A stretch of DNA of 64,000 nucleotides from Corythoichthys intestinalis (lineage: Eukaryota), in the NCBI RefSeq assembly GCF_030265065.1, contig NC_080410.1, positions 29,762,661 through 29,826,660 on the forward strand, written 5' to 3'. Numbering within the stretch: the stretch's first letter is position 1; each line of letters begins with the position of its first letter. Shown in pieces: positions 10,137 through 63,203 of this stretch. The position numbers and the translations under genes were made by a program. Under the pieces are notes generated by a model. It ran no database searches. It was not told where the DNA came from and was given only the letters and a program-made list of their open reading frames with translations.

Positions 10137-10183
10137 TCACGAACGGTACGGCACCCCGCATGATCTAAAGGTGGGTCACTGAC

Positions 10184-12107: not shown

Positions 12108-13254
12108 GTAAGGTTCACGGTGATCATGTCGAAGCCATAACACAAGGCATTGGACCTCCAATTCCAACTAGCTGTCAGGGGAACCCAAAGACTTCTGATC
12201 ATTTTTACATTCGTTGCGTAAATATTAGAAGGCCCACATTGTCAACTTTTTTCGCGTTTTTCACATCTGATTTTAAAACTCAACATTTAACGTTGCAATT
12301 TGCCCATTAGCGGTTCTTGTTGTATACATCCCAAGAGGGTTGTGTTTGAACAAAATCGTTTTTTTTTTTTTTTTGGTCATATTTTGTTTAAACTGACAGT
12401 TTTGTAATTGATTATTATCCATGGCTTCCATTGACAGCAACAGATGCCCAATCCATTTGAACCATGTTGGGCAGCCCAATGACTGTCGATAGCAACCAAT
12501 CAGTTTTAATTTGGAAAAAATAACCCTGGCTTATTCTTCTAATTTATGATTAATAAGTATTTGAAAAGTGACTCCGTGCGTGGGAAACTACCCATTCAAA
12601 GAGTGTAGGGACAGATGGCATGACTGAATAGTGTCACTCAATTTTGCTGTACATCTCTTGGATTTTACTCTTAACTTGCACTTTACAAAACAGGTTTATA
12701 TTTTACTTTATCCATAGGCTTCATAATATATTGACATGACACGGGGCGCAGGGCCGATCCATAGGGGGCCAACTTTAAAAAACTTCGAATATTTTCAAAA
12801 CCAAAGATGCTACCAACCTAAATCCAAATCAGGCACCTACCTTAGCGATATATGAGTCTCCTAGAGCAGCGGCATCAAAAAATTCTAAGTCGTTCCCTTA
12901 TAAAATCCAGATTATTTTTTATATAAGTATAACATAACTTAAAATGCTATAACATTCTCAGATTTTACACAAGATACACACAAATCATCAAATACAGAGA
13001 TAATCACCTATATTTTCATAATCAATAGCAATATTTAACATATCAAATAAGTTTTTTCCCAAAATAGCAACTTAATTTTTTTTCAACAGCTAATAAATCA
13101 CTCATTTTTCAAATCAAAAACTTAATACTTGAGGAAAACATGCAGAATCAATTATAAATCATTTATAAATAGATTATTAATTAATTCTATACGCAATCAC
13201 AACTTATTATAGAATAGAATAGCCCTTTATTGTCATTATACGGTTATATAGTTA

Positions 13255-14730: not shown

Positions 14731-15689
14731 GTGAGGCTTTCCTCTTTTTGCCAGTTCTGGCGTCACTGTGTGGAGGATCATGAGTGACAAAATTAAATAC
14801 ATCATTCAATAGATAAACATGTCGTTAAGTTTGTAATTATTTTCGTATTTATTTCAACAATTATTTTTATATTTTTAGTTCATTATTTATCTATGTAATC
14901 ATTTATTAATTTTAGTTCTTGTTAAGTTATTTCACTTTTTATTTCGATTGAGTTCTTTGTGCAGCATGAAATAATTGTATCTGTCAATTACCGGTAAGTA
15001 GATAAAAACTGAAATAAGTTTGTAATTAATCAGGCATGAAAATCTCTCACCTTTCGGCAAAATTCGCCGTTTTGAAGTCAAAAAGGGCGACTTGCGTGAA
15101 TTGCATAGATCCGAGGAGAAATTCCTTTTGGGGGGTCGGGAGATTTTATTTAATTATTATTATTGTCATCATGTGATTAACTTAGTGTGTAAACTGAGCA
15201 CTTCAGAAATCGGTCCTTTTAAAAAGTGACACTTGGACAGTCAGCAAATCCTTCTAGATGCTTCGCTGACGAGAACCAATCATCGGCCCAAACTGCGTTT
15301 CATTATTCCAATCGCGGTTAATGGGGACCAGAACCCACCGCAATAAGTGAAAACCGCGAAGTAGCGCCCCCCCCCCAAAATTTTTTTGCGTGTTCAATGT
15401 ATTTATTCAGATTTTACATTGGAAAAAAAGATACATATATATGATGTTTTTTCACTTTTTTCCCCCCAAAGTATCATCTATAAATGTTTTTAAGCACTTC
15501 AAAATGTAAGAATAATGATGAGTTTTAAACATGTCACTGCCCCACCTAATTATTTTTAAACAAGAATAAAGTAGTAAGAAAATGCTTGGCTTTATTAAAT
15601 GCTTCACACTGAGTCTCCTCAAACCCTCTCAGGCTGCTCACTTTGTTAAACGATGATTGACACATGTGCAAACTTTTTCTATGATTGAA

Positions 15690-15732: not shown

Positions 15733-17108
15733 ATCAGAGGTTTTTTTTTTAATATATATATTTTGTAATATGTATTTTGTTTGAAGCAACTTATTTTTTG
15801 ATTGAATAATAAAGACACAAATGTCCTAGCCAAAATGTGGCCCAAACGCAAACAACATTACTTCAGTGGAAAAAGTTGTTTCAATCAAAAAAAATAATTT
15901 TCAAATGCTTTTTTTTGCCTCAAATATATTTTTGCAATCAAAAACATTTTTTTTATTGAAGTGACTTTTTGGGGATTAAAAATATATATTTTGATTAAAG
16001 CAACTTTGTTTTTGATTGAAGCAACTTTGTTTTTTGAGTGAATAATAAAGACACAAATCTACCTCCTTCGTTATTGAGAGAGAAATTACGAAAGCTTTAA
16101 AAATAAAAGCCACCGGGAGTCTGATTTTTTTTTTTATTTTATTTTTTTTTATTAAAGATTTCTATTTCATTCTGAGGAAAGGAGATTGAGGGATAAAAAA
16201 AGGAGTTGGATGAGGCTGCTAAAGGCAGGGAATACCTCATCAGCTGGGTGAATAGCACACTTGGCAAGAATAAGTTTGCAAGGATAGTCGGGTATAAAAT
16301 ACAATTATAAACACAATTACAATGTTATTTTTATATAAGATTTTATGTCATTGCTTTATTAATTATTAGGTGCTAGAGTTGTTAAGTATGGATAATAATG
16401 AAATAATAGTTTTGAGAAAACTGTGCTGTTGGTGGCTCAGTGACCATCTGATGTGGTTTGTTCTAAAATGAACAACTTGAGAAAGGTTTTGATGCAGAGG
16501 TTGAAGGAAGAGGCAGACTGACTGAGTCACAGCCAGAAAGTGTTGATGACAGTGTTGATTTCTATTCACTGTTGCCCCCTCCCAATTAAAGTATGTCACA
16601 GTCGCAGCCAATTATTATCTAAAGCTGGTTAAAATTGAAGTTATGTTGTTTTAAGGTGTATTAAATACTTGTTCAGGTGCTCCTTTTGATCTATGAGCAC
16701 CCGCTCTTCCACCGGTCTCTGCACGGCCCTGCTGAAACACTGTTGGTCGACAGAGCTCAATATTTTGTTGTTTGTACAGTGTCCCGGAACATATTTCCTC
16801 GGCACCCTTCTCACCTTTTTAACCCCTGACCCATTTTCATGCCTGAATTAATGTATAAATATTGAAAGAAAGATGTAAATAAATGTTAAATATAGAAATA
16901 AAAACTAAAATAACATTTGAAGTAAATCAATATTGAAATGGTAATTTCAATAAATATAGTTAAATATATAAATAAATACTACAATAATATTTAATCACAC
17001 ATTGAAGCATTGTTTGATGACATGCTTCTTTAATTGAATGTTGCAACTGATGACATATCCAAGCACAAACACGAGTTTATTCTGCAAATGTGTTTGCTTG
17101 TGTGGTAG

Positions 17109-22558: not shown

Positions 22559-23638
22559 ACCGTATTTTTTGGACTATAAGTCGCACCAGAGTATAACTCC
22601 CACCAGCCCAAAAATGCGCAATGAAGAGGGGAAAAAAAACAAAACACACAAGTCGCACCGGAGTATAAGTCTCATTTTTGGGGGAAAATTTCCGTATTGG
22701 CCCGAATATAAGACGGCCCTGATTATAAGACGACCCCCTCTTTTTCAAGACTCAAGTTTGAAAAAAAGACTTTTTGAACACCAAAGTTTTATACAGAAAA
22801 TAATTACAGTACATCTGAAACAAATGATTATAAAAACATATTTGAGAGAAAAAGCATGTTATTTTGCCTCATTCAAATCTTAATATCTGAACATATAAAT
22901 ATGTAAACCAATGTGCAATCACATTCGTAAATGAATGGCTTCTGGTTTTTGAAATGTTAATAAACCAATCTATTGTGATAAAACAACAAAATTGCAATAA
23001 CTGCATAAGCCATCAAAGTGAGGTCTAACTGTAACTGTAGTCTTGAAACAAATCTGAATAAGGAAAAACATTGCATTAAAATAATGCAAACTGGTTAAAG
23101 TTGAGAGTAGCTGAGATCTGTCATGACAGAACATTACTCAAGTTCAGCGTTGGCTTCAATGATATCTGACGCCATCTAGCGTCATGAATGGGTATAATGT
23201 CTAGACCCCGAATATAAGAAGACTCCCACTTTTTCAGTCTTATTTCAATGCAAAAAAACACCGTCTTATATTCGGGCCAATACGGTACTTGATAAAATCC
23301 AACACATAAAACAGATATGTCATCTTGAAAGGCAATTTAAAATAAAAATACAATAGAGAACAACATGCTGAATAAGTGTACAGTATGATAAAGTTACATG
23401 ATGCATGAACAAAGAAATGTGAAAGTGCCCAGTATGTTAATGAAACATAGCTATTAAGAGTTATTCAGATAACTATAACAAAATAAACATGCTAAAAAGT
23501 TTACCAAACCATCAGTGTCACTCCAAAACAACATATGAAACGATATAATAATGTGTTAATAATTTCACATTTAGGTCGCACCCCCAGCCAAACTATGAAA
23601 AAAAAAACCTGCAACTTATAGTCCAAAAAATACGGTAC
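22559..23638 (+). mobile_element. Long-TIR MITE family 2, composite copy in casc3 intron 4
   Basis: Outer TIR gtaccgtattttttggactataagt(c/t)gca at 22559, and its reverse complement at 23590..23638. Inner inverted pair ccgtattggcccgaatataagacggccctgattataagacgaccccctctttttcaagact (22702) and its reverse complement (23200..23288). Confidence 0.65.
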
Positions 23639-38532: not shown

Positions 38533-39783
38533 GTGCTGGCCAAATATATTGGCACCCCTGCAATTCTGTCAGATAATGCTCAATTTCTCCCAGAAAATGT
38601 TAGCAATTACAAAAAGTGCCATCAATCAAAAACCAAAGAATGAAAAAAAAAATCATGATCAGTTTTACACAAAACTCAAAAAATGGGCCTGGCACCCTTT
38701 TTTTGGCACCCTTTGAAAAATCGTGATGCCTCCCTAATTTGTTTAATTACCAACACTGGTGGCATTAACTAAATCACACTTGCAGTCAGTTAAAATGGAT
38801 TAAAGTTGACTCAACCCGTGTCCTTGTGTGTACCACATTGAGAATGGAGAAAAGCAAGAAGACCAAAGAACTGTCAGAGGACTTAAGCAAAACTGAGGAA
38901 GCATGGGCATTCTCAAGGCTACAAGTTCATCTCCAAAGACCTCAATGTTCCTGTGTCTACCGTGGGCAGTGTCATCAATAAGTGTAAAGCCCATGGCACT
39001 GTGGCTAACCTCCCTAGATGTGAACGGAAAAGAAAAATTGAGAGATTTCAACGAAAGATCGTGCGGATGGTGGATAAAGAACCTCAACCTACATCCAAAC
39101 AAGTTGCGTAGGTTCCCTGATGTTTTGGGGTTGCTTTGCTACCTCTGGCACTGAACTGCTTGACCATGTGCATGGCATTATGAAGTCTGAAGACTACCAA
39201 CCAATTTTGCAGCATAATGTAGGGCCCAGTGTGAGAAAGCTGGGTCTTCCCCAGAGGTCATGGGTATTCATTCCAGCAGGACAATGACCCAAAACACACT
39301 TCAAAAAGCACAACAAATGGTTTGAGAGAAAGCACTGGAGACTTCTAAAGTGGCCAGCAATGAGTCCAGAGCTGAATCTCATAGAACACCTGTGGAGAGA
39401 TCTGAAAAGGCACCCTTCAAATCTGAGACCTGGAGCAGTTGGCCAAAGAAGAATGGTCTAAAATTCCCGCAGAGCATTTTCAGAAACCCACTGTTGGATA
39501 CCGGAAGCGGTTGTTCGAAGTTATTTTGTCTAAAGGTTGTGCTACCAAGTATTAGGCTGAGGGTGCCAATGCTTTTGTCTCGCCCATTTTTGGGGTTTTG
39601 TGTAAAATGATAATGATTTAATTTTTTAAAAAAATTTTAAATTTTAAATTTTGTGTTTTATCATTGCAAGCAAAATAAATGAAGACATTACTACCAAAGC
39701 ATATGTAATTGCAATAATTTTCTGGGAGAAATTGAGCATTATCTGACAGAACTGCAGAGGTGCCGATACTTTTGGCCAGCACT
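38533..39783 (+). mobile_element. Tc1/mariner family A, second internally deleted copy
   Basis: Same TIRs as 3849..5173 (ctggccaaatatattggcacccctgcaattctgtcagataatgctcaatttctcc ... gcagaggtgccgatacttttggccagcact). Transposase fragments at 38903..39154 and 39350..39610. Confidence 0.85.
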
Positions 39784-40194
39784 ATAAATCATGTTACTTG
39801 ATATTATGTGTCTGGGCTTAACATTTTAGCTGTAAAAATGCTTTGAAACCAAATGTTAGATGCAGAGAAATACAGTTGTACCTCAACATACGAATTTAGT
39901 TTCGGGACGTGGTTTATCTATTGAAATAGTATGTCAAGACTGATAAGAATAATTCGTTGAACAGCCCAAAAAACAAATTCTTAATAAATAATGCAGGTAC
40001 AATTGCACGTAGCTAAAAAAAATAAATTATAAATAGGGAATTAAAAAAGCGTTTTTATTGTCACTGTAACTTGTTGCTGACAGTGACAGCGGGTGTGGAG
40101 GTAGCTGTTACGATGAGCCGTGTTCCAATTCCAGTTCTCACTCGTACATCACGCATGTGTTCGATGATTTCTCATAGATTTCATCACGTATTGA

Positions 40195-40597
40195 CTGGAA
40201 ACGGGGCCGATAAATAGGGGGCCTGCATTGTTGGCGAGGCCGTCAAAGCTGACCAAATGGAATCACAGACGAAGAGCTTTTTTTTGTTGAAAATTCTTTT
40301 GAATAAATGCTTAAATCCTTGAATTCTAGATATGGAGGTGAAAGTCTTGATTCTTGGTTAAAAGCACACACACACACACAAAAAAGTTGCAGGTAGCATT
40401 TATTTTACGTGAATATGTCGAAGTACAATGCTAGCCTGTTAGTCAATATAGCTAGCGGCTGCCTTATGTAAACAGAGCTTTTCCAGTGAAAATTCTTGTG
40501 AAAAAATGCTTAAAGCCCCGAATTCTTCATAGATATGGACGTAAAACAGTCTCGATTCTTGGTTAAAAATAAAAAACGTATAGTTAGTACAGTGTAT
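40195..40597 (-). repeat. Composite interspersed repeat, copy 4 (reverse; 3' module plus 2 units), truncated by the Tc1 family D mini-copy at 40598
   Basis: ccgataaatagggggcctgcattgttggcgaggccgtcaaagctgaccaaatggaatcacagac is the reverse complement of the 3' module. It is followed by two reversed tandem units and a short (CA)8 run. Confidence 0.65.
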
Positions 40598-41008
40598 CAC
40601 AAAAGTGAGTACACTCCTCGCATTTTTGCCCCAAAACATCACTGCTCTAGAGGAGATCTGCATGGAGGAATGGGCCAAAATACCAGCAACAGTGTGTGAA
40701 AAGCTTGTGTAGAGTTACGGGAAACGTTTGGCCTCCGTTATTGCCAACAAAGGGTACATAACAAAGTATTGAGATGAACTTTATGTATAGACCAAATACT
40801 TATTTTCCACCATGATTTGCAAAAAAAAAAAAAATTCTTTAAAAATCAAAAATGTGATTTTCCTGTTTTTTTTCCACATTGTCTCTTATGGTTGAGGTTT
40901 ACCCATGTTGACAATTACAGGCCTCTCTCATAATTTCAAGTGGGAGAACTGCACAATTAGTGGTTCACTAAATACTTATTTGTCCCACTGAAGCTAACAT
41001 TGCTACGT
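40598..41008 (+). mobile_element. Tc1 family D, internally deleted mini-copy (5' TIR joined to 3' end)
   Basis: 5' tacagtgtatcacaaaagtgagtacactcctcgcattttt, then the C-terminal transposase tail (...[24 protein letters not shown]...ANKGYITKY), then 3' TIR ...cactgaagctaacattgctacgttcc. Same family as 45377.. and 52225.. Confidence 0.75.
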
Positions 41009-41100
41009 TCCAAAGTGCATTGAAGGAAAAATGGTTGGCAGTGAAAAGGACCCAGCCCGTAGTCAGCACACAATCCAACAGCGCCTGAAAATGGTGATCA

Positions 41101-41507
41101 TCAGGCTCCGAAACGGCCGACGTCGGCAAGTCCGTCTTCCACCTTGCGGTGCGTGCGTGCATGTTTCTTGAGTGTGTCGCCATCGCTGAAGGTGCGGCGA
41201 CACACGCCGCAGCGGTACGGACGTTCGCCCGTGTGGATGCGCACGTGGCGCCGTAGGTTACCTCTCTGGCTGAAGCTCTTGGTGCAGAAGGTGCAGCGGT
41301 GCGGCCGCTCGCCCGTGTGCGTGCGTACGTGTCGCCGCAGGTCTGCCGACTGCGCGAATGATTTGCAGCACCAGTCGCACGCGTAGGTTTTGCGCTTCTG
41401 TTCCAGGTGTAGGCAAAGACGAGATGCCTGGGAGAAGACTTCGCTGCAGCGGGGGCACTCGTACACCGAGGCGCCTGCCGCCGCTGCTGCCGTCTCGCCA
41501 AAATGCC
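41101..41507 (-). CDS. Terminal exon of the same ZNF gene: 4 C2H2 fingers, stop at 41103..41101. Acceptor follows a T18 tract: ttttacccgcag|GG.
   Basis: (G)HFGETAAAAAGASVYECPRCSEVFSQASRLCLHLEQKRKTYACDWCCKSFAQSADLRRHVRTHTGERPHRCTFCTKSFSQRGNLRRHVRIHTGERPYRCGVCRRTFSDGDTLKKHARTHRKVEDGLADVGRFGA*. Has canonical C-x2-C-x12-H-x3-H spacing and TGERP linkers. Acceptor phase (needs 1 nt) matches the phase-1 donor of the 50243..50465 exon, so the predicted protein is about 210 aa. Confidence 0.5.
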
Positions 41508-41698
41508 CTGCGGGTAAAAAAAAAAAAAAAAAAGTCAGGAAATGATAATAGCGGCTGCCATTTACGGCGCTAGACATCCAATTCACTGTCTATCGTCGTC
41601 AATGGTAGTGAATGAGTCAAGAACATGAAATGCAATCAAACATTTTTGATTCAGCTAATAGAGGTGTATTGATTTATTTGTATCGATTAATCTATTAC

Positions 41699-42105
41699 AC
41701 TGCTGGCCAAAAGTATTGGCATGCCTGCAATTCTGTCAGATAATGCTCAATATCTCCCAGAAATTGATTGCAATTACAAATGCTTTGGTAGTAATATCTT
41801 CATTCCATTATTTTTGCTTGCAATGAAAAAACACAAAAGAGAATGGGAAAAAAATAATAATCATTATCATTTTACAAAAAACTCCAAAAATGGACCGGAC
41901 AAAAGTATTAGCACCCTTTGAAAAATCATGTGATGCTTCTCTAATTTGTGTAATTAACAGCACCTGTTACTTGCCTGTGGCACTTAACAGGTGGTGGCAA
42001 TAACTAAATCACACTTGCAGCCAGTTAAAATGGATTAAAGTTGACTCAACCTCTGTCCTGTGTCCTTGTTTGTACCATATTGAGCATGGAGAAAAGGGGG
42101 CTAAG
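41699..42105 (+). mobile_element. Tc1/mariner family A, 5' fragment only (TIR plus about 350 bp)
   Basis: ctggccaaaagtattggcatgcctgcaattctgtcagataatgctcaatatctcccagaaattgattgcaattacaaatgc aligns to the 5' ends of the other two family A copies. Confidence 0.7.
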
Positions 42106-43734
42106 GGGGCCAGCCCCCCCGTGGTGGCCTAAAAGTGTAATTGCATGTTTTTGACTTTCCTATATATATATATATAAAAGTTGTAAAGCAATAAAACTGC
42201 AACAAAAATGAAATGAACAAAAACACATATTTTTATAATGGGTCGAAATTATTTTTCAAGCACCTTTGTCATTTGCTTTGCATATAATTTAAAATATATA
42301 CTAGAGAAAAAAATATTTTTTTAAATGATTTTTTTCTCTAATTTTTTTTTTTTTTTTGATTGAAGCAACTTTTTGGGGGATTGAATGATTTAGACACAAA
42401 TGTCTTAATCATAATATGGCCCAAACAAAAAAAAGAATTGCTTCAATCAAAGAAAACTTTTTCAATGAAAAATTAAGTGTTCAAATGCAAATTTTTCAAT
42501 CTCAAATATTTTTTCGCATTCAAAAACTTTTTCTATGGTTGAAATTGTTCATTTTTTGATTGAATTGATTTTTCTTTTTGAAAATATTTTTTTAAGCAAC
42601 TTATTTTTTGATTGAATAATAAAAAGGGGATATAATTTTTTACCGTGGTAACTACATTGGCACGACACTGGCGTGCGTACCAAATTCAATGGATGATGAT
42701 CTTGGCGATAAGTATTGCCTAAGCAGCCTGATTTAGAATTCCCCTCAAGAATGATGGGAAACAAAAAACGTTCGTTGTCAACTTATTATTTTAAATATTC
42801 TTGTAAGTTAATTTGATTGCTGACACTGTGTTTTGGGTTCATCAACATGCTGTGCCCCCTCCGGCCCCAAAAGTCAAACTCCGCCTGTACAAAGAACTGT
42901 CTGAGGACTTGAGAAGCAAAATTGTGAGGAAGCATGGGCAATCTCAAGGCTACAAATCCATCTCCAAAGACCTGAATGTTCCTCTGTCTAACGTGTGCAG
43001 TGTCATCAATAAGTGTAACGCCCATGGCATTGTGGCTAACCTCCCTAGATGTGACATATTTGTCCAGTGGTTTGATTTACAGCAACTGAAAAACACAATG
43101 GTATTGAAATCACGCCACGACTGAATCGGATCCGATCTTGTGACCAAATAAGATAATTTCCGATACTCCACAATAGCCGTCTCGGGTAAAATTATCGCAG
43201 TTAAGGTGAAATGTCAAAGATCCGCAGGCATTTTGTGTAGGAAGGTGACTTTTTGGAATTGTTTGGGGATAGTGACTTGGAATTTTGAAAGAACTTAACG
43301 ACATAGACAAGCTCAGTTTTAGCTAACAGCGCAGCCTCGACTTGAGTCGGTTCATTTCCGTCCATTACCGTTTCGTTCCAGTTCCTCTCGCCCACCGCTC
43401 CGGACATCCTTCAAGGAACTGACTTGCGCCTCACGTTTGAGGGGCGTGACCTGGGGGTCCACCTTTTCACTTTTGATGACAGGAAGGGGCGGGACTGCGG
43501 GTTCATTTCGGAGCGCCGGAAGAATGAGCGTATGTTTGGGAGGGGTCTGGTCTGGACGGGTGAGAGGAGACGTCAAGACAGACACCGACACCCGCTCGGG
43601 CGTGCTTGGCGGGGGCGCTTTCACGATGTCGGGAACGCGGGCTTCCTCCGGGTTCCCAACGACCAGACGCTTGCTAGTACCTGAAAGAATAGGAGAGCAT
43701 CAAAAGTCACAAAACGTGACTATTGCAAACATAC

Positions 43735-45046
43735 CGTATTGGCCCGAATATAAGACGGTGTATTTTGCATTAAAATAAGACTGAAAAAGAGGGGGTTGTC
43801 TTATATTCAGGGTCTAGACATTATACCCATTCACGACGCTAGATGGCGCCAGATATCATTGAAGCGATGTTCTTTCATGACAGATCTCAGCTACTCTCCC
43901 CATTCACGATGCTTGATGGCGGCAGATATCATTGAAGCGATGTTCTGTCATGACAGATCTCAGCTACTCTCAAGTTTAACCAGTTTGCATTATTTTATTG
44001 CAATGTTTTTCCTTATTCACATTTGTTTCAAGAATACAGTTACAGTCAGACTTCACTTTGATGGTTTATGTAGTTATTGCAATTTTCTTGTTTTGTCACA
44101 ATAGATTGGTTTATTTTAGGGCTGTCAAACGATTAAAATTTTTAATCGAGTTAATTACAGCTTAAAAATTAATTAATCGCAATTAATCGCAATTCAAACC
44201 ATCTATAAAATATGCCATATTTTTCTGTATATTATTGTTGGAATGGAAAGATAAGACACAAGATGGATATATACATTCAACATACGGTACACAAGTACTG
44301 TATTTGTTTACAATAAATCAACAAGATGGCAATAACATTATTAACATTCTGTTAAAGTGATCCATGGATAGAAAGACTTGTAGTTGTTAAAGATGAATAT
44401 TAGTATAGTATAGTATAGTTATAGAAATTTTATATTAAAACCCCTCTTAATGTTTTCGTTTTAATAAAATTTGTAAAATTTTCAATCCAAAAATAAACTA
44501 GTAGCCCGCCATTGTTGATGTCAATAACTACTTACACAATGGTAATGGATGCTGAAGCCAATAAAAGCAGTCGCACCCGAGCGCCAGCAGAGGGCGGAAA
44601 AACTCCATAAAACACAATTAACAAGTTGGCCTTTCACTATACTGACATTTAAATCTGTCTGAGCGGGGCTAGTGCGTTAATTGCGTCAAATATTTTAACG
44701 TGATTAATTTAAAAAATTAATTACCGCCCGTTAACGCGATAATTTTGACAGCCCTAGTTTATTTACATTTCAAAAACCAGGAGCCATTCATTTACGAATG
44801 TGATTGCACTTTAGTTTACAGATTTAAATGTGCAGATATTAAGATTTAAATGAGGCAAAATGACATGCTTTTTCTCTCAAATATATTGTTATAATCATTT
44901 GTTTCGGATGTACTGTAATTATTTTCTGTATAAAAATTAATTTGATGTTCAAAAAGTCTTTTTTTCAAACTTGAGTCTTGAAAAAGAGGGGGTCGTCTTA
45001 TAGTCAGAGCTGTCTTATATTCTGGCCAGTATGGTACTTCACCCAT
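43735..45046 (-). mobile_element. Long-TIR MITE family 2, second copy (opposite orientation), carrying nested MITE family 1 copy 2
   Basis: Termini taccgtattggcccgaatataagacgg... and ...cttatattctggccagtatggta. Internal sequence is collinear (reverse complement) with 22700..23290, including the duplicated cattcacgacgctagatggcgccagatatcattgaagcgatgttct block. Confidence 0.7.
44119..44755 (+). mobile_element. MITE family 1, copy 2 (about 640 bp), nested inside the long-TIR MITE at 43735..45046
   Basis: Same termini as copy 1 (gggctgtcaaacgattaaaatttttaatcgagttaattacagc ... taattaccgcccgttaacgcgataattttgacagccc). Internal sequence is collinear with copies 1 and 3. Confidence 0.75.
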
Positions 45047-45376
45047 TGGCTGCCTCTGACGTCACTGGAGGTCCAGTCCATTTTGACTGGGAGGGCTGGC
45101 AGGATCTTGGACCTCTAGTGATGTCACTGGCCGTGAAACATGATCATTTAATGCCGTGGTTTGGAGGACACAGAATGTCTCCTTCACGTTCAATTTAGCG
45201 ACGTGTTTAGCCTGCTTGTCACCACAATAGTAACAGTTTCGCCATCGCCGAAGGCAAATTACCGTGTTAAACTTGTAGAAAGGCATTCAAAGTAAGGCTG
45301 TTCGATTAATCGATTTTGAAGGATATTCAGCCTTGAAACATTCACCACTTCTTCATTTTTGTCGGCAGACTTTGAT

Positions 45377-46215
45377 GTACAGTGTATCACAAAAGTGAGT
45401 ACACCCCTTGCATTTCTGCAGATATTTAAGTATATCTTTTCATGGGACAACACTGACAAAATGACACTTTGACTGTCTGTGTGCAGCTTATATAATAAGA
45501 GTTAATTTATTTTTCCCTCAAAAAATTGTCATTGGCTTGTCATTTTCCCTCCAAAATGTCATGTGACTCCTTACAGGAGTGCTGTCAGCATTGCTGCAGA
45601 GATTGAAGAGGTGGGGGGTCAGCCTGTTAGTGCTCAAAGCATACACTGCCCTCTACATCAAATTGGTGTGCGTGGCTGTCACCCCAGGAGGAAGCCTCTT
45701 CTGAAGACGGTACACAAGAAAGCCCGCAAACAGTTTACTGAAGACATGTAAACAAAGCACATGGATTACTGGAACCATGTCCTAAGGTCTGATGAGACAG
45801 GTAATGACTATTCTAGCTGGAAACGTCCGGTTTTAATGCAATATCTACGTAGTTTTGTACAGAGGCCCATTTACAGCAAACATCACGCCAGTGTTTTAAA
45901 GGTACATTGTGGTTGCTAGTTGCCTTAGAAGGATAATAGATGATTAGAAAACCCTGTACAATTATGTTAGCACAGCTCAAAACACTTTAGGTGGTTAGAG
46001 AAGCTATTAAAACTGATCTTCCTTTGAGCTAGTTGGGTATTTGGAGCATCACCTTTGTGGGTTTGATTAAACTCTCAAAATGGCCAGAAAAAGACAACTT
46101 TCATGTGAAACTGAAGTGAAGGCTATTCCATAAGAGAAATTGCCAAGAAACTGAAGATTCCCTATAACGCTGTGTACCACTCCCTTCAGAGAGCAGCACA
46201 AACAAGATCTAACCA
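45377..46215 (+). mobile_element. Tc1 family D, 5' half (TIR plus transposase N-terminal region)
   Basis: TIR tacagtgtatcacaaaagtgagtacaccccttgcatttctg matches 40598. ORF 45563..45751 and the HTH-region fragment near 46100..46210. Confidence 0.65.
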
Positions 46216-46306
46216 GTAGAGCTGGGAATCTTTGGGCACCTAACGATTCGATTACGATTCAGAGGCTCCGATTCGATTATAAAACGATTATTGATGCACC
46301 CCCCTC

Positions 46307-46337
<31 letters not shown>

Positions 46338-47084
46338 GTTTTGTACATTAGTTCCATAATTGTTCAAAAATACTCTCAGGCTAAACCAAATTACTATTTC
46401 AGTATCACGTTAACATATAGCAGTAAACAAATATACAAAAATAACAGTAAATAAAAAACTCCAGTCCCCATTCTGTATCAGCAGCTTTAAACTACATTCA
46501 ATTAATTTAATGTTGTGAATCAACCGTTAAAGTTGTTAAAATTGCTCCCGTTATTCCATAATTTCCCTTTTGTCTACTTTCGACATGTGAAAGTTTTAAA
46601 ACTATTTTAAAGATAGATTTAAGTCAATATTTTACCGATTTGGGAGTATTTTAGATAAAAAGTTAATTAGGTTCGCTTGGAAGGTTCGCTACAACAGCCT
46701 TGCACGGAAGTGTACTGCTTTAAGATGGCGGCTGTTTGCTAACGCTCGCATCTAGCTTTTTGTAGATGTTCTGCTAACGCTATCGAATCTATAATGCATC
46801 TAGTCCTATATAAATGATACCTACCGTAACATTATGTGGATGTACTTTGTAGCAGCTTTTCGGCAGCAGTCAGGTATGTTGTTGTGTTTTTTATCTCGTG
46901 GCATGAGTTGAGCTAGAGCCGTGAGTTGAGCATTGGCATTACCCGAGGGGCCGGGTAATGAGAAGCATGATGTTTAGCTACTCTCGCTCCGTTCTTCATT
47001 GTGCCGAAGACCGCGCGGCGCGCTGAGTGTGTTGTACTTTCGCTTTACTTGGCATATTTCAATAATCGGAATTTGGATGTTTGT

Positions 47085-47560
47085 GAATCAATTCAATTCA
47101 ATTCAATTTTATTTGTATAGCCCTAAATCACAACAACAATGTCTCAAAGGGCTTTACAGAAATGAAGCAACAAAAATGAATAGATACAGTTCAAGTCCTG
47201 GGTATCCCCTATCCTTAAGACCCTCCATGCCGGCAAGGAAAAACTCCAAAAACTCCAGAGTCAATTGGGAGAAAAATGAGAAACCTCGGGGAGTACCACA
47301 GTCAGGAGAGATCCACTCCCAGGACGGATAGACAGGAACCCCAGAAGTGCTAGTGGGAATTAGCAGGCGAAGTTACAGTCCGTAAAAATACAGTTGAATA
47401 AAGGAGCAAGAAGAGGTCCATCTAGCCAGATGAGACAGGGGAAGCAGCGAGGACGTCTATCCAGCCAGAGGTCCGGACAGTCAGGAGGCTGCAGCTGAAA
47501 AATAGCCCCTCCCCAGAGGGGAATCGTTCTCGAATCTTCCACGGCTGAATCGCAAATAAT
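47085..47560 (-). mobile_element. Possible 5'-truncated LINE 3'-end fragment or SINE, with an (aattg)4 tail
   Basis: caattcaattcaattcaattttatttgtatagccctaaatcacaacaacaatgtctcaaagggctttacag is similar over about 50 bp to the 3' terminus of the L2-like LINE at 28850..28880 (ttatttatagcgcgcttttaccggtgctcaaaggcgctttacag). Confidence 0.3.
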
Positions 47561-48876
47561 CTAAGAATCGGAAATTTTGCACACCTCTACTAACCAGAGT
47601 AGGAAGAGAAGCGGGAGGCCCCGCTGCACAACCGAGCAAGAAGACAAGTACGTTAACGTCTCGATTTTGACAAATAGATGCCTCGCTTGTCCTCATCTAG
47701 CAGCTTCATTAAATAGTACCCATAAAACGCTAGTGTCAATGTCGACAGTGAAGAGACGACTCTAGGTGCTGGTTTTCAGGGTTGCGTGGCAGAGGAAAAA
47801 GCTTTATCTGAGACTGGATAATAAAACGAAACAAATGTTTTGTATTCATAAACGTGTCCTCAGTTGATCTGGAAATAATGATCCTATTGCGTGTTATTAT
47901 TGACATATCTTTTTGCCACAAGATGGCAGGATGGGACTTAATGGTCTAAAGTGCTACTTATAGTGCTTCATTTTTTGTTTGACTTCGATTACTTTGATTT
48001 GTGGGACTGCCTGTGAAGACAGCATGAGAGATGGATGTATCCGCATGTCGGTGGAAATTAAACGCTGAGTTTTGGCTGAAAGAAAACGTATTCTCCGTCA
48101 ATTATTCCTATGAATGCGTCGTTAACCTGCAACCACCTCAACAATTTCCAACCTTGCAATGTCTTGACTATATTTTCTATTCATTTTGAAACTCATTTTA
48201 AAAATAAAAGTGTGGCTTTTGAAGGAAAACACAAAATTGTCTCGGTGACCCCAAACTTTTTAACGGTAGTGTATATAAATTATCAGTTTTTGTTAGCTGT
48301 TTGTGAAGTTTTGTGTTTGCACGTTACTTTCACTTACACCCTGTGTGACTCCTGGGGGCTAAGCCCACACTGTTTTCAAAACCTTGTGACGCCCCTAATT
48401 TTCTTGTTAAACAAAATCGAACAGCCCTAGCAAAGTTCCGGCTGAGCAGCGGTTTCTCCACCCTGGCTGCAAAAGCGAGGGAGCTTAAAGCTGGAATGTG
48501 AAGTAATTTCATAACATGCCAACTAGGGTCACAATTAAAGTAATTAAACATTGTCCAACAAATAAAGCAGATCCTGCAGCGCTCATACATATAAAATAAT
48601 AATATAAAAACGTTGGGGGGGGGGGGGGGGGTCGTTGATGGCTTTCTCCACTTTATTGTGGCAACAATAAGAAAACAATATAGTGTCTTGTTATGAGCGT
48701 TTTGTTGACAAAGGTATCGAACACACGACGTGCTTACAACTTTGTTGCTTTATTAACACATGGAGCTAACAATAGCCGGGGCTTTCGGCAGTAAGTGGCG
48801 TCTAATGACGTGAGGAAATGTAGTTTTTTCACACAAGCGAACGGATTACAAAGCACCACTTCAGTGTTGTCCCGAG

Positions 48877-48901
48877 ACTACATTTCCCATGATTCACTGC
48901 G
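48877..48901 (+). promoter_or_regulatory. Near-consensus ZNF143 (Staf) SBS motif ACTACATTTCCCATGATTCACTGCG
   Basis: Matches the extended SBS consensus (ACTACAaTTCCCAgnAtGCatTGCG) at almost every conserved position. An inverted CCAAT (gccgtcattggggcg, about 49610) and a GT-donor-terminated untranslated stretch (about 49150..49257, ...ttttcg|gtgagg) lie downstream. Confidence 0.45.
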
Positions 48902-50242
48902 TGACTTGAGCCGCTCTCTGATTCGCTGCGAGATTGACTCACTGCCAACACGCTTGCTGTCACCTGTCAGCGGCTCTCGCGAAACATAAACTAGAAGGCT
49001 ATCAAGCGATCACCGTGAAAGAAACGCCGCTACAAATGCAATGCAATGCTTGAAGCATGAAGGTGGAAATACATAATACAAATACAAATACAAATAAATG
49101 TGCACAAACTCACCGGCGGTGTAAACCTGCTGCTGTCAACGCTCTAGTAGGTCGCATTTCACAGCATTCTGCAGCGGTCTTCCTCGCCAGCTGTTTGCTC
49201 GCCATTCACGCTCGTTTGCATTTGATCGCTAGTCCGATACACTCCCGCTTTTTCGGTGAGGTCTTTTGTGTTTATTCGTTATTGGATCGTTTTTGTTCAC
49301 CGCTGTAAATAAGAGCACTGAAGTAATAGGTGTAAGTCGCCATTTCTGTTCAACCCGTTTTCTCCTGCTTTGTTTAGCGTAAGAAGCTAGGTTAGTGGCA
49401 GTCTTTTCTTTGTTCTTTTTCATGATCAGGGTTTAGTTAGCGGGTGGGGTTCAAGTGTAGATTCCTTTTGTTTGTTGTTTTGGCCTGGGCTTACCCTGAA
49501 GCCGCGCTTCATCTCCATTTTGTACATATTCATTGCAAGTTTGATTGTTGTGTAAATAAATTTGTGCCACTTGTGAAATTGTGTGGCTCGTTTTATGTTA
49601 CGCCCTTCGCGAGCCGTCATTGGGGCGTAACACTAGCGAACATAACAACAACTATGATCGATGATTGCCACGAGTTGGCTTTCGGCTAACGTCTAGCTTC
49701 TACTGTACATTTCACAACAGTTGGCAGCTCTGCTTGACAAAGTCATCAGTCATCTATCCAAAAATCACACTTACTTTTTGGCAAATACTTGATCATAAGC
49801 AGACCGGTTAAGGAAGCAGGCATCTTCGAAGTGTTTGCAGCAGAGAAGACTACTTGATGATGGCGTGAAATTCATTCGCTTCGTGCGAACGAAAGATGTC
49901 CATTTACGAGCCCTGCTATCCTTTGGCCACTCATACAACTTTTCGTTTTAGTGAGAACAAAACATCGCCACACACCGCCGTGGCATCTTACCGAGAAGCA
50001 ATGCAACAAACAATACTGTTCTATGGCGGACTTCCCTCGCACGTCTAGGTGTGACGTAATTTCCGAAGATTGCCGAAGAAAAGCATTTTCGTTGTCAAGG
50101 GCGTTGCTATGGGTTAAACAAAGAATCTGGAAGGGTTGCGTTAAAAAAAAAATGAAAATATGCTTAGCCATTGATATTATTCAAAAACATGGTTGGCCAA
50201 CCTTACTTCACATTAATGCTTTAGGTGTTTGCTGTCCCTTAC

Positions 50243-50465
50243 CGGGAGACGGAGGCCGAACCCGAGGTTCGTCTGGCAGCCTGAGGAAGTCGCCGAGCTG
50301 CCGTCGCAATTTCTCGTTCTCCAGCCGCGTCCGTAGCGTCTCGTCTCGGTACTCGCTGACAGCGTCTTCCACCACGTCCACGATATCCCGCAGCAGCTGC
50401 GTAAGGCGCTCTGTCAGGTAACCGCTCAGCACATCACCTTTGTTCAATTGCCTTATTTTGCTCAT
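50243..50465 (-). CDS. Exon 1 of a teleost-type C2H2 zinc-finger gene (ATG at 50465 on minus; donor CCC G|gtaagg, phase 1)
   Basis: MSKIRQLNKGDVLSGYLTERLTQLLRDIVDVVEDAVSEYRDETLRTRLENEKLRRQLGDFLRLPDEPRVRPPSP(G). This resembles the conserved roughly 60-aa N-terminal exon seen on many teleost ZNF genes (L..ERL..A.EEI....E.TI.EYE.E..R...EN.RQR.LL), by recollection. Clean GT donor. Confidence 0.5.
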
Positions 50466-50689
50466 CTTGCTCACTCGCGGTGCTCGGCATCCAGGAAATG
50501 ACGGCAAAACTCACCGGAAGTCGCCCAAATATTTAGTCTTAAAAATTCTGACGAGACATTTTGCTCCGACAAGGAACTTGTTTTTTTTTCCCTTAATGTG
50601 GCAGATTAGTTGAGCAAAACCAACTCAAGAACTATGGAGGACCAGGAGTGCAAAAATTCAATATATAAATACACAATTAAATAAATAAT

Positions 50690-50995
50690 TAAAAGTGTCA
50701 TTAAAATGCTTCTATTTCAATATTTATTTATTTCTTTCAATATTTATTTCAAATTTTATTTATTTATTTCAATTTTTATTTATTTATTTCAATTTTTATT
50801 TATTTATTTCGATTTTTATTTATTTCAATTTTTATTTATTTCGATTTATATTTATTTATTTCAATTTATATTTATTTATTTCAATTTTCATTTATTTATT
50901 TCAATTTTTATTTATTTATTTCAACTTTTATTTATTTATTTATTTCGATTTTTATTTTTTTATTTCAACATTTATTCATTTCACTTTTTATTTAT
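50690..50995. repeat. AT-rich minisatellite, about 12 copies of a roughly 26-bp unit (tttatttatttcaatttttatttatt), 225-530 bp upstream of the ZNF exon-1 ATG
   Basis: Direct tandem periodicity visible in the sequence. ORFs 50695..51051 and 50706..51092 are artefacts of it. Confidence 0.85.
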
Positions 50996-52224
50996 TTCAT
51001 TCTTGCACTCTTGTTCCTCCGGAGAGAACAAGAGTGAGAGAACCTTATTGACAAAGGAAGCAGGTGGTTGCAATTACTGTTTTGTCCACTAAGTGGTAGC
51101 AAAAGAGTAATTTGCAGCTAGAATACGACAAAAAGTCACTTGTTTATTACTAATACCTACCACTTTGTCCCTATATGCCCAAAGTACCCCTTTTGACTGT
51201 TTTTATTTAATTTATTTATTTATTTTGCATATGTGTGTGCTGGCCTACTGTGCAGGCACGCCACTGAGTACTTTACTTGAACACCGAAAACACCTTTAAA
51301 AAAATAATTAATTAATAAATAAATAAAAGACGCTTTACACATTAGAGGTGTGCATCGGCACTGCCCTCACGATTCGATTCGTTTACGATTCGGAGGGCCA
51401 CGATTCGATTCGATTCAATTCAGAGGGTCACGATTCGATTCGGTTCGACTCGGCAATGCATCGCGATGCCTTAAAGCCTGGGACGCATTTAAATTCTAAA
51501 GCAAAGCATATTTTTCGTGAATCATGAGGCAACACAAGCGGTCAGACATTAAACAACTTTTTATTGGCTCTTGTGTCACTCCTGGTTGAAGTCAAATGAA
51601 AATACTTTCAGATATATATTTAAAAAAAACAACTGATCACAGCATTTAATTGGTGCTTTGAATGAGACCAGGGCTTTGTCTTTTTTTTTTTTTTTTTACA
51701 CACAGTAGCAGCCTTTCACACAGTGCAACATCTGAACTCCTGTGCAAAATCAGTAATAACAGTCACTGTATTTTAGTCACAGCGACCCATCAATAAAAAT
51801 ATTCAAGTAAATATTAAAGAAAACGACAAAGAAAATATTGTAGTGCAGCAGCATCTTTATCGCAATATTAATCCAGGGATCAGTTCAGTTGCAACAAAAC
51901 ATCAACTAAATTGCAATGTAGAACAAAAGTAAAATGTAGGCCTAACCCACTATATATGTGCAATCAACTTAGAAATGCAATCAGTAACTACCACATAACA
52001 ATAAAAAATAACGAATTAAAATGAAGTGCAGCATTTTAGCAGCCATAACAATCTGTTTCAACATGAGGAAATATCAGTTTTTTGCAATCGAGAGAGCAGA
52101 GAGATAGTAGAGGTTAGATCGGGCCTAAAAAATCCAGCCCGACCTGACACGGCCCGCTGGTATTGAAGCCCGACCCGGCGTGTCCTCCTGCTGAAGAAAG
52201 TACACGTCGAGGCCTGTCTGCGGT

Positions 52225-53310
52225 TCGCTAGACGCAGGGGTTTTCAACCCAGTCCTCAAGGCACACTGTGGGTCCTGGTTTTTGTTCCAGCCGATCCAGC
52301 AGAGACAGTTGAACCAATGAGGCTTCTGCTAAAACAAGCCACACCTGACTGCAATCAACTGATTGCACTTGTAAAACACCAGATTGGGGAAAAAGTGTTG
52401 TCATCTTGTTTGGTAAGAATGAAATCCTGCACCCACAGTGTGCCTTAGTGGAATAGGTTGGGAACCCCTGCGCTAGAGAGCATTTGGATGATCCAGAGGA
52501 GGACTGGGAGAATGTGTTATGGTCAGATGAAACCAAAATACTTTTTGGTAGAAACACAGGTTCTCTTGTTTGAAGGAAAAAGAATACTGAATTGCACCAT
52601 ACCCACTGTGAAGCATGGGGGTGGAAAAATTATGCTTTGGGGCTGTTTTTCTGCAAATGGATGACTGATCTGTGTAAAGGAAAGAATGAATGGGGCCATG
52701 TATCGAGAGATTTTGAGTGAAAATCTCCTTCCATCAGCAAGGGCATTGAAGATGAGATGTGGCTGGGTCTTTCAGCATGGCAATGATCCCAAACACACAG
52801 CCAGGGCAACAAAGGAGTGGCTTCGTAAGAAGCATTTCAAGGTCCTGGAGTGGCCTAGCCACTCTCTAGGTCTCAACCCCATAGAAAATCTGCGGAGGGA
52901 GTTGAAAGTCCATATTGCCCAACGGCAGCCCCAAAACATCACTGCTCTAGAGGAGATCTGTATGGAGGAATGGGCCAAAATACCAGCAACAGTGTGTGAA
53001 AAGCTTGTGAAGAGTTACAGTAAACATTTGGCCTCCGTTATTGCCAACAAAGGGTACATAACAAAGTATTGAGATGAACTTTTGGTATCGACCAAATACT
53101 TATTTTCACCCATGATTTGCAAATAAATTCTTTAAAAATCAAACAATGTGATTTTCTATTTTTTTTCACATTCTGTCTCTCATGGTTGAGATTTCCCCAT
53201 GTTGACAATTACGGGCCTCTCTAATATTTTCAAGTGAAAGAACTTGCACAATTAGTGGTTGACTAAATACTTATTTGCCCCACTGAAGCTAACATTGCTA
53301 CGTTCCTTAA
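52225..53310 (+). mobile_element. Tc1 family D, 3' half, with a roughly 230-bp palindromic insertion at 52228..52460
   Basis: Transposase C-terminus in ORFs 52458..52664 and 52686..53072 (...[72 protein letters not shown]...ANKGYITKY). 3' TIR ...cactgaagctaacattgctacgttcc at about 53283..53310. The inserted segment has inverted ends ggttttcaacccagtcctcaaggcacactgtgggtcc / ggacccacagtgtgccttagtggaataggttgggaacccc. Confidence 0.7.
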
Positions 53311-61354: not shown

Positions 61355-62295
61355 GTAGGTGGTAGCAAGCTATTGCTAGCCATACTTCTGATTTTGCGTA
61401 TTTGAAGAACAACAGACCGAGTGTACATTTCGATTTCATGACGATACGATATCGATTATTTGGATAACAACACGTTATTTGCCGATACAGTGATCCCACG
61501 CTACTTCACACTTCAAACTTTGCGCCCTCAGTCCATCGCAGATATTTTTTCAATTAAAAATACAATATATATACTAGTCCTTCTAAAAAAAATTAGCATA
61601 TTGTGATAAAGTTCATTATTTCCTGTAATGTACTGATAAACATTAGACTCATATTTTAGATTCATTACACACAACTGAAGTAGTTCAAGCCTTTTATTGT
61701 TTTAATATTGATGATTTTGGCAAAAAAGTCAAGAAAAACCAAAAATCCCTATCTAAAAAAATTAGCATATCATGAAAAGGTACTCTAAAGCAAGGGAGTA
61801 TGTTTGGTCTTAATATTGGTAGTTACGATATCACAGTATAACCTGCATGTACATTTTGTTGCTGGGGACGGGACATTAATAAGACCAAACATATTTGGTG
61901 AATGGGGGGTCAGGGCTACATTTCTCACCAATATGAACCTAATTAATTGATAGACTAAATTATTAATGCAAAATAAATCTGTATTGACCTATACTAACTT
62001 CAACTAACAAACTGCAAATTTATAACATTTTAATCTGATATTTTTGGTTAAATCTAGTCAAATAATTTTCTCCATCTTTTTTTGAGTGTGAAAGGCTAGT
62101 TAACAGATTAATGCGTTGGATTGTTCCACTTACTTTAAGTAAACATTTCTATTTGTTCATATTAAGCCCATACATCTAAAAGTTGGTCATTTTTCACCTA
62201 AATCAAGAAAAACATTTTTTAAATAATGTTTTGAACAATATTCTTGAATTAAGAACATTTCTGATGAACAAGTTTTTCTTTTAAGGTTAAATATT

Positions 62296-62942
62296 AGGGC
62301 TGTCAAAATTATCGCGTTAACGGGCGGTAATTAATTTTTTTAATTAATCACGTTAAAATATTTGACGCAATTAACGCACTAGCCCCGCTCAGACAGATTT
62401 AAATGTCAGTATAGTGAAAGGCCAACTTGTTAATTGTGTTTTATGGAGTTTTTCCGCCCTCTGCTGGCGCTCGGGTGCGACTGCTTTTATTGGCTTCAGC
62501 ATCCATTACCATTGTGTAAGTAGTTATTGACATCAACAATGGCGGGCTACTAGTTTATTTTTGGATTGAAAATTTTACAAATTTTATTAAAACGAAAACA
62601 TTGAGAGGGGTTTTAATATAAAATTTCTATAACTATACGTACTATACTATACTATACTAATATTCATCTTTAACAACTACAAGTCTTTCTATCCATGGAT
62701 CACTTTAACAGAATGTTAATAATGTTATTGCCATCTTGTTGATTTATTGTAAACAAATACAGTACTTGTGTACCGTATGTTGAATGTATATATCCATCTT
62801 GTGTCTTATCTTTCCATTCCAACAATAATATACTGAAAAATATGGCATATTTTATAGATGGTTTGAATTGCGATTAATTGCGATTAATTAATTTTTAAGC
62901 TGTAATTAACTCGATTAAAAATTTTAATCGTTTGACAGCCCT
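62296..62942 (-). mobile_element. MITE family 1, copy 3 (reverse orientation), downstream of the PRRT2-like exons
   Basis: Reverse complement of copy 2 almost base for base (gggctgtcaaaattatcgcgttaacgggcggtaatta ... gattaaaaattttaatcgtttgacagccc). Confidence 0.75.
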
Positions 62943-63203
62943 ATTAAATATACAATTTTTTTGCTTAAAATAAGTCTGTTAAGCTTATTTTCAGCTAGCT
63001 GTTTTTCTCATTTCAAGAAATCTAAGTGAGTAAAATCAACTTGAAGCACTGTAACAGTAGCAAAATTAGTGGAGTGTCCCCCACCTCCACAACATTGATG
63101 TCTTTTTACATTTTACATTACTTACAGTGGCTGCTGCTGGCGGAAAAAAACTTCTAATATCCCTCGTCTTTGAAGGGGGCGGGGGAAGCGGCATCTGTCA
63201 GGC

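Follow-up and report, generated by a model that had tools for sequence, protein, structure and literature searches.

A three-exon C2H2 zinc-finger gene very probably accounts for the whole minus-strand locus studied here, its product being a 313-aa protein of the transcription-factor type and its introns and promoter having been swollen by insertions. The locus lies in a 64,000-nt stretch of the Corythoichthys intestinalis genome (NC_080410.1, positions 29,762,661 to 29,826,660; hereafter the window, to whose first letter all coordinates refer). It is an ordinary C2H2 zinc-finger transcription-factor gene that is already present in RefSeq. A search of a collection of about 15 billion protein sequences revealed that the three-exon translation is the same as XP_057716628.1 over its full length. 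The RefSeq gene and the locus are one and the same, with no difference in either product (313 of 313 and 255 of 255 aa identical for XP_057716628.1 and XP_057716629.1, respectively). An earlier note on this DNA had proposed that the minus strand carries a spliced gene for a C2H2 zinc-finger protein, which is real and matched by the RefSeq model, but had considered it unannotatable by ORF and missed by ORF-based gene finding, whereas two isoforms were already on record. RefSeq names these isoforms 'zinc finger protein 79-like isoform X1' (XP_057716628.1) and 'protein glass-like isoform X2' (XP_057716629.1); such automatic '-like' names do not show the gene to be an orthologue of human ZNF79 or Drosophila glass.

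Gene structure

Coding exon 1 (50465..50243, minus strand; 223 nt) runs from the ATG to a phase-1 donor, CCCG/gtaagg, and encodes aa 1-74, which comprise the N-terminal helical module. A tblastx comparison with Stigmatopora argus gave a conserved block over this region (50543-50283). Coding exon 2 (43680..43369, minus strand; 312 nt, phase 1/phase 1) encodes aa 75-178 and lies between the acceptor ttctttcag/GT and the donor AACG/gtaatg. Its acceptor at 43681/43680, in the context ctcctattctttcag/GT, is good and in phase, the exon coincides with a conserved tblastx block (43690-43394) and a local GC peak of 0.52-0.54, and it is included in both RefSeq isoforms. Coding exon 3 (41507..41101, minus strand; 407 nt including the TGA stop at 41103..41101) follows the acceptor T18-acccgcag/GG at 41508/41507. 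All junctions are of the canonical GT-AG type with polypyrimidine tracts, and both junctions of the main isoform are in phase 1. Exon usage was assigned from the RefSeq models together with cross-species conservation.

The first exon as given in the earlier note (its 223 nt, its peptide and its phase-1 donor at 50243) and the acceptor at 41508 with a frame open to the stop at 41101 can all be read in the DNA. What had been taken for a single intron of 8.7 kb is in fact two, intron 1 (50242..43681, minus strand; 6,562 nt, expanded by transposons) and intron 2 (43368..41508, minus strand; 1,861 nt, carrying a Tc1/Sleeping-Beauty-type HTH fragment). Rfam and tRNA scans of positions 40000-52000 returned no matches and hence gave no hint that an RNA gene lies in the introns.

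An alternative first coding exon

Isoform X2 starts from a different first coding exon within intron 1 (49775..49823, minus strand; MPASLTGLLMIKYLPK), which ends in a phase-1 donor, AAAAA/gtaagt. Joined to exons 2 and 3, it gives exactly the 255 aa of XP_057716629.1. The exon sits within a fragment of a THAP domain (Pfam THAP, 49774-49947, minus strand; E = 2e-5, 25.7 bits against a cutoff of 23.9), and its 16 aa are out of frame relative to that fragment. The THAP-bearing insertion of C. intestinalis may be the origin of this additional first exon and, with it, of an isoform that lacks the helix.

It might be asked whether this 255-aa isoform, started at 49823 in the THAP-derived exon and devoid of the N-terminal helix, is the main product, with the exon at 50.4 kb little used. 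The RefSeq entry speaks for such a reading, as do the exon, ATG and AAAAA/gtaagt donor in the window, which reproduce the protein exactly. Nevertheless, we regard it as improbable: the insertion that contains the alternative exon is lineage-specific (the corresponding intron of S. argus has only 300 nt, and no THAP-like similarity was detected in it), its residues are read out of frame from the THAP fragment, and the exon for the N-terminal module is strongly conserved together with its promoter block.

Orthologues, synteny and the middle exon

Orthologues of 294-353 aa were found in eight other syngnathid species, all with the N-terminal module, the middle region and the fingers. The gene is a conserved single-locus orthologue, flanked in pipefish by a CD225 gene on one side and CASC3 (Btz) on the other, the collinear order being CD225, ZNF, CASC3 (Btz) and Methyltransf_16. 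CD225 and Btz were both seen beside the gene in S. argus, Btz in Syngnathus scovelli, and CD225 only in the locus retrieved from the pufferfish Takifugu rubripes. In S. argus (LOC144088356) the exons measure 205, 276 and 404 nt and the introns 300 and 111 nt; in S. scovelli, where the gene is named 'adult enhancer factor 1', the exons measure 328, 321 and 413 nt and the introns 467 and 104 nt. The junctions are in phase 1 in both. In the T. rubripes model ('ZNF397-like') a single exon covers both the middle region and the fingers and intron 2 is lacking, so this intron is not universal. Syngnathid and other percomorph orthologues have in common the N-terminal module, a linker with an IKxE motif and the finger block, and the exon phases are the same among pipefish. 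By contrast, an extra C-terminal finger is found in the non-syngnathid orthologues but in none of the pipefish and seahorse proteins. Within the interval of the gene, tblastx gave the three exons and conserved upstream blocks, plus one 14-aa fragment of 21.7 bits elsewhere.

These comparisons bear directly on the two-exon gene put forward earlier, in which the donor at 50243 is spliced straight to 41507. That join is in frame, since exon 2 is symmetric (312 nt, phase 1/phase 1), and gives 209 aa; both of its splice sites are strong, and skipping of exon 2 is possible as a minor isoform. It leaves out the conserved middle exon at 43680..43369, however, and 41508 is not the nearest strong in-phase acceptor, as had been thought, because a nearer one lies at 43681/43680. 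The 209-aa product is absent from the protein collection in which the 313-aa product is present; exon 2 recurs in other pipefish with conserved sequence, position and phase; and the middle region, which holds the K144/E146 motif, is kept in 20 of 20 aligned orthologues. We therefore consider it very unlikely that the 209-aa protein is the main product, and retain the three-exon gene.

Protein architecture

An AlphaFold2 (AF2) model of the 313-aa protein revealed three parts. At the N-terminus, residues 9-61 form one helix (pLDDT >90); residues 62-190 have pLDDT <50; and the C-terminal part contains four beta-beta-alpha units (pLDDT 84-93). For the N-terminal segment of about 55 aa the prediction is one long amphipathic helix, whose heptad pattern is imperfect, the best register placing hydrophobic residues at 53% of the a/d positions. 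The linker that follows (about 120 aa) is disordered and rich in Pro and Ser, most of it being contributed by exon 2. It contains a psi-K-x-E motif, I143-K144-S145-E146 (IKSE), in which K144 and E146 are shared by at least 90% of the 20 aligned orthologues.

The finger exon matched Pfam zf-C2H2 (PF00096; 72.8 bits against a cutoff of 25.2; E = 1.5e-20) and zf-H2C2_2 (PF13465; 81.7 bits against a cutoff of 40; E = 2.1e-23), in agreement with the assignment made from the letters alone. Four fingers with perfect TGERP linkers had been described; there are three canonical fingers, starting at C222, C250 and C278 (regular expression C-x2-4-C-x12-H-x3-5-H), with two TGERP linkers, preceded by an incomplete finger 1. 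This first unit, C196-x2-C199-x12-H212-LEQ-K216, is degenerate and lacks the last His, the fourth ligand. Its degeneracy is conserved across orthologues, and AF2 still models it as a beta-beta-alpha unit. Fingers F2 and F3 are invariant in the 20 aligned orthologues.

Taken together, this architecture would fit a sequence-specific transcription factor in which the invariant fingers F2 and F3 may read a conserved DNA target and the N-terminal helix may mediate a protein-protein contact, either dimerization or the recruitment of a co-factor. The psi-K-x-E motif of the linker might serve as a SUMO acceptor.

A family of teleost proteins with the N-terminal module

The leader peptide had been proposed to be a module of fish ZNF proteins, and homology searching bears this out. 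When the 74-aa peptide was used as a phmmer query, 114 representative clusters matched at E ≤ 1e-3, of which 21 were at E ≤ 1e-10, the match lying mostly at the protein N-terminus. All 18 clusters whose source was named are from teleosts, ranging from eels and a mormyrid to percomorphs. C2H2 fingers occur in 30 of the 53 family members of at least 250 aa, and Pfam zf-C2H2 was matched in 32 of 112 members. The consensus of the module is M[ST]KLxxLNxxLTERLxxAxxEIxxVVExTVxEYxEExxRxxxENxxLRRxL, and in C. intestinalis, S. argus, S. scovelli and Takifugu it is encoded by a separate first coding exon with a phase-1 end. Proteins such as zinc finger protein 250-like of C. intestinalis and ZNF665 of Kryptolebias show a homologous helix at the very N-terminus, followed by a linker and then a C2H2 array. 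Many of the paralogues, with their 6-11 fingers, resemble members of expanded families; here, by contrast, the fingers are few and invariant and the syntenic position is fixed, which is what a conserved regulator would be expected to show.

The module belongs to no Pfam family, and a profile search of the PDB with it gave no significant relative (best E = 0.024), the top matches being dimeric coiled coils at E = 0.02-0.3. Several known N-terminal domains were considered and set aside. The TSC22/leucine-zipper family (PF01166) is not matched by this protein and only weakly by 6 of 25 family segments (best E = 2.7e-5), which amounts to a resemblance only. For KRAB, PF01352 was matched neither by the peptide at E ≤ 1 nor by 25 N-module segments at E ≤ 0.01, and KRAB is not among the 25 commonest Pfam families of the 112 family members. 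FiNZ, as described by Wells et al. (2023; PMC10547256), is a 28-aa Glu-rich sequence unique to cyprinids; the present protein, with a helix of about 55 aa and a syngnathid host, is set apart from the FiNZ-ZNFs by that description. FiNZ-ZNFs and tetrapod KRAB-ZNFs do share with this gene a general plan in which a short N-terminal effector module on its own exon stands upstream of the finger-array exon, but the present gene shows nothing to suggest rapid finger turnover. In actinopterygians, 'KRAB-like' ZNFs have been reported with an N-terminal region proposed to bind TRIM33, as presented with Figure 5B of Carotti et al. (2022; PMC9101882), to which the present module could correspond.

A broader reading can be offered tentatively, and we judge it possible rather than probable: the N-terminal helix would be an undescribed, teleost-specific effector or dimerization domain of C2H2 proteins, and the gene a slow-evolving member of a family that has expanded elsewhere, with a THAP-derived, helix-less isoform gained in C. 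intestinalis.

Insertions in the introns and the promoter

Tc1, MITE-like and THAP-bearing insertions into both introns and the promoter have stretched the gene, which spans 9.4 kb in C. intestinalis as against 1.3-1.6 kb in other species; intron 1 is 14- to 22-fold, and intron 2 about 17-fold, longer than in related pipefish. A Pfam scan of ten stop-to-stop ORFs from the introns found three Tc1-type fragments, the number given in the earlier note, each on the plus strand. Intron 2 holds a Tc1/Sleeping Beauty transposase HTH fragment (42807..43121; HTH_SB, 4e-16), part of which (42890-43054) is 90% identical to 38864-39023 in a self-BLAST of the window. Intron 1 holds a Tc1/Tc3 transposase HTH fragment (45506..45748; HTH_Tnp_Tc3_2, 7.5e-12) and a weak Tc1/mariner-like one (47565..47762; HTH_32, 3.8e-4, below the gathering score). 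Neither a reverse-transcriptase nor a LINE domain turned up in the ten ORFs.

Self-BLAST also confirmed the nested repeats that had been noticed in the intron (43732..45034), which are non-autonomous and whose near end lies some 50 nt upstream of the acceptor of exon 2. Positions 43732-44115 and 44757-45034 are the halves of one outer element, a further copy of which lies at 22692-23287. They are split by an inner repeat (44109-44756) that is 97.7% identical to 62295-62953, and a 73-nt tandem duplication occupies 43826-43971. An inverted-repeat scan of the introns returned low-complexity A/T arms only.

Upstream of the coding region, pairwise alignment with S. argus revealed two conserved blocks on the minus strand. 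The proximal promoter/5'UTR block (50466..50543; TATTTGGGCGACTTCCGGTG..TTTTGCC..ATTTCC) contains ACTTCCGG, which we take to be a putative ETS-type core. The distal block (51050..51101) reads GTGGACAAAAC..TGCAA.CACCTGCTT.C.TTGTC. The two blocks directly adjoin in S. argus. In C. intestinalis they are split by about 505 nt of sequence (50544-51049) missing in S. argus, which includes a MITE-like insertion (50636..51020) with 18-nt inverted termini, GGAGGAMCARGAGTGCAA (two matches against 0.02 expected). An AT-rich minisatellite upstream of the gene had been reported with a period of 26 nt. Such an array is indeed present inside the MITE-like insertion (50713-51004; 13.2 copies, 83% matches), 248-539 nt upstream of the exon 1 ATG, but its period is about 20 nt. 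Judged from the comparison with S. argus, the promoter minisatellite is part of a lineage-specific insertion.

The heavy transposon load of both introns, the repeat ending so close to the exon 2 acceptor and the insertion splitting the promoter might suggest a decaying, unexpressed pseudogene broken by transposons, but this is scarcely credible given that the reading frames of all three exons are intact, the splice sites are canonical, the fingers agree with those of orthologues at invariant positions, the coding sequence is untouched by any insertion and the gene is protein-coding in RefSeq.

Significance

The finding carries little biological weight, since RefSeq has the gene already and it behaves as a conserved transcription factor would. 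It does hold a lesson of method: joining a donor to the first strong-looking in-phase acceptor can silently skip a symmetric exon, and in this case exon 2 would have stood out by its conservation across species or its GC content. Two points are of minor interest for the biology of the gene and its family. A ZNF N-terminal module that occurs across teleosts still awaits a Pfam family, and in C. intestinalis long introns and a promoter-splitting insertion have been tolerated with the coding sequence undamaged.

Gene structure and annotation

Inspection of the minus strand confirmed, at the coordinates given, both exons that the earlier note had proposed as a complete C2H2 zinc-finger gene. Exon 1 (50465..50243, 223 nt) starts with an ATG at 50465, encodes the peptide MSKIRQLNKGDVLSGYLTERL...PPSP and ends in the consensus donor CCCG|gtaagg. 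Exon 3 (41507..41101) follows a T18 tract and the acceptor acccgcag|GG at 41508/41507, is open to the TGA at 41103..41101, and matches the Pfam families zf-C2H2 (1.5e-20) and zf-H2C2_2 (2.1e-23). Joined directly, the two are in frame and give a product of 209 aa. Besides the GC-rich islands at exons 1 and 3, however, the composition profile shows another at 43.2-43.8 kb (GC 0.52-0.54), and a further exon of 312 nt lies at 43680..43369 on the minus strand, phase 1 at both ends, with well-formed splice sites (acceptor ctcctattctttcag|GT, donor AACG|gtaatg). The premise that no strong in-phase acceptor lies closer than 41508 fails because the one at 43680 is nearer to the exon 1 donor and in phase. 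The two-exon join had looked clean because exon 2 is symmetric, so that skipping it preserves the frame; a transcript skipping exon 2 may exist as a minor isoform.

A homology search with the 209-aa product retrieved syngnathid proteins of 294-353 aa and one C. intestinalis protein of 255 aa that is 100% identical across the finger part. An alternative first exon (49823..49775) joined to 43680..43369 and 41507..41101 encodes exactly the latter protein, XP_057716629.1 ('protein glass-like isoform X2'). The three-exon product starting from exon 1 is 313 aa long and by exact look-up is the C. intestinalis XP_057716628.1 ('zinc finger protein 79-like isoform X1'), while an exact look-up of the 209-aa sequence found it absent from the protein collection. 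Because both translations match RefSeq exactly, the gene with its middle exon is already in the public annotation. Thus the two exons and the family assignment of the earlier note stand; its two-exon architecture, 209-aa product, single 8.7-kb intron (exon 2 divides that span into introns of 6,562 and 1,861 nt) and view that the gene escapes annotation do not.

Comparison with other fishes and expansion of the locus

The coding exons of 223, 312 and 407 nt span 9,365 bp in C. intestinalis, against only 1,296 bp in Stigmatopora argus (exons 205, 276 and 404 nt; introns 300 and 111 nt) and 1,633 bp in Syngnathus scovelli (exons 328, 321 and 413 nt; introns 467 and 104 nt), with both junctions in phase 1 in all three species. 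In Takifugu rubripes the gene spans 1,422 bp (positions 3001-4422 of the locus examined), with exons of 235 and 833 nt and one phase 1 intron of 354 nt. Since the 833-nt exon carries the middle and finger regions together, intron 2 was either gained toward the syngnathids or lost in the pufferfish. The middle region is retained in 20 of 20 aligned orthologues.

Gene order is the same in S. argus and in the window, running collinearly from the CD225 gene through the zinc-finger gene and CASC3 (Btz; window ~37491-21006, minus strand) to the Methyltransf_16 gene (window ~17513-14127), and the acceptor context preceding the S. argus finger exon (...tacccgcag|G) matches that of the window. Apart from one 14-aa, 21.7-bit fragment, translated similarity in the zinc-finger interval is confined to 50543-50283, 43690-43394 and 41527-41107, corresponding to the three exons, and to conserved upstream blocks. 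About 8.7 kb in S. argus (4433-13169 of its locus, L001) corresponds to about 47 kb here (14127-61409), which is ~5.4 times longer, and the sequence comparison points to locus-wide expansion of introns and intergenic DNA by repeats.

The earlier description of the intron contents was largely right in its Tc1-type fragments and nested repeats. Pfam detected HTH fragments of Sleeping-Beauty type at 42807-43121 (4e-16) and of Tc3 type at 45506-45748 (7.5e-12), and gave a weak HTH match at 47565-47762. An outer repeat (43732-44115 and 44757-45034, with a further copy at 22692-23287) is interrupted by an inner one (44109-44756) that is 97.7% identical to 62295-62953. Within the repeat that lies shortly before the exon 2 acceptor, a 73-nt unit occurs as a tandem duplicate (43826-43971, 94% identical). 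No Rfam family or tRNA was found in the region 40000-52000. A repeat at 40902-41011, 92.8% identical to 53196-53306 and with Tc1-like terminal sequence (CAGTGGGACAAATAAGTATTTAGTGAACCAC...), starts ~90 nt past the TGA; the 3'-UTR probably runs into a transposon end.

Intron 1 also contains a THAP-domain fragment (49774-49947, minus strand; Pfam 2e-5, above the gathering score), which holds, in a different frame, the first exon of isoform X2 (49775-49823; ATG, 16 codons, gtaagt donor). No THAP-like similarity was detected in the orthologous S. argus intron, which is just 300 nt. The X2 first exon looks like a transposon-derived alternative exon, whose product would be without the N-terminal helix.

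Upstream of exon 1 lies an AT-rich tandem array (50713-51004; 13.2 copies, 83% matches) whose computed period is ~20 nt and not the 26 bp first reported. Two conserved upstream blocks that adjoin in S. argus are ~505 nt apart in C. intestinalis (insert 50544-51049). The insert contains an element of ~385 nt that has the minisatellite as its interior and is bounded by inverted termini of 18 nt (GGAGGAMCARGAGTGCAA; 50636-50653 and 51003-51020; two matches versus 0.02 expected by chance). Because these termini bracket the array within an insert that splits conserved blocks, the minisatellite is cargo of a MITE-like insertion and not a conserved promoter element. Weakly similar AT-rich arrays occur at ~2975-3084, 14846-14944 and 16846-16939. 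The proximal conserved block includes ACTTCCGG, a putative ETS-type core.

Protein domains and conservation

The N-terminal module, a predicted helix of ~55 aa, matches no Pfam family. Searched exhaustively with phmmer, 1.84 billion representatives yielded 114 clusters that match it at E<=1e-3, of which 21 reach E<=1e-10; the matches mostly cover residues 3-60 of the target. Pfam zf-C2H2 is present in 32 of 112 proteins carrying the module, and C2H2 patterns in 30 of the 53 with a length of 250 aa or more. All 18 matches with a source name are from teleosts (Elopomorpha, Osteoglossomorpha, Otophysi, Esociformes, Osmeriformes and percomorphs). These data support its assignment as a fish zinc-finger leader exon. 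AlphaFold2, run with 20 orthologues, predicted that residues 9-61 form a single unbroken helix (pLDDT above 90) and that residues 62-190 are disordered (pLDDT below 50); it also modelled four beta-beta-alpha units with pLDDT of 84-93. The module may serve in dimerisation or co-factor docking; this role is put tentatively because its similarities, limited to dimeric coiled-coil helices (TSC22 zipper, XRCC4 coiled coil, geminin-family proteins and YabA), are weak and its heptad pattern is imperfect. Takifugu exon 1 shows an internal duplication within the helix (YRDEAARYREEAARYREEN).

Among known families, the product belongs to the C2H2 proteins. It is neither a KRAB zinc-finger protein, as no PF01352 match was found, nor one of the FiNZ zinc-finger proteins, whose domain is described as 28 aa long and cyprinid-specific (Wells et al., 2023, PMC10547256). 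A 'KRAB-like' domain has been reported in actinopterygians (Carotti et al., 2022, PMC9101882).

In the linker, a psi-K-x-E motif (I143-K144-S145-E146) that the two-exon model would remove is nearly invariant in the 20 orthologues; it fits the SUMOylation consensus. The first finger unit (residues 196-216, window ~41455-41393, minus strand) is without its fourth ligand (H212-LEQ-K216, the last His missing). This absence is kept in the orthologues, and the unit is nearly invariant across the 20 percomorph sequences; despite the missing His, the model gives it a beta-beta-alpha fold with high confidence. It is thus a conserved 'finger' that has three ligands or binds no zinc. The other three fingers (2-4) are of canonical form and include two TGERP linkers. 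All orthologues from pipefish and seahorses end soon after finger 4, whereas other percomorph orthologues carry an extra C-terminal finger (GEKPYRC..C.K.F.SASGLQIH.KKD.C), which, judging from the alignment, was lost specifically in Syngnathidae.

In summary, this is an ordinary, conserved and already annotated zinc-finger gene whose introns are swollen by transposable elements, and the invariance of fingers 2 and 3 in 20 of 20 orthologues fits a fixed DNA target, not an arms-race repressor.
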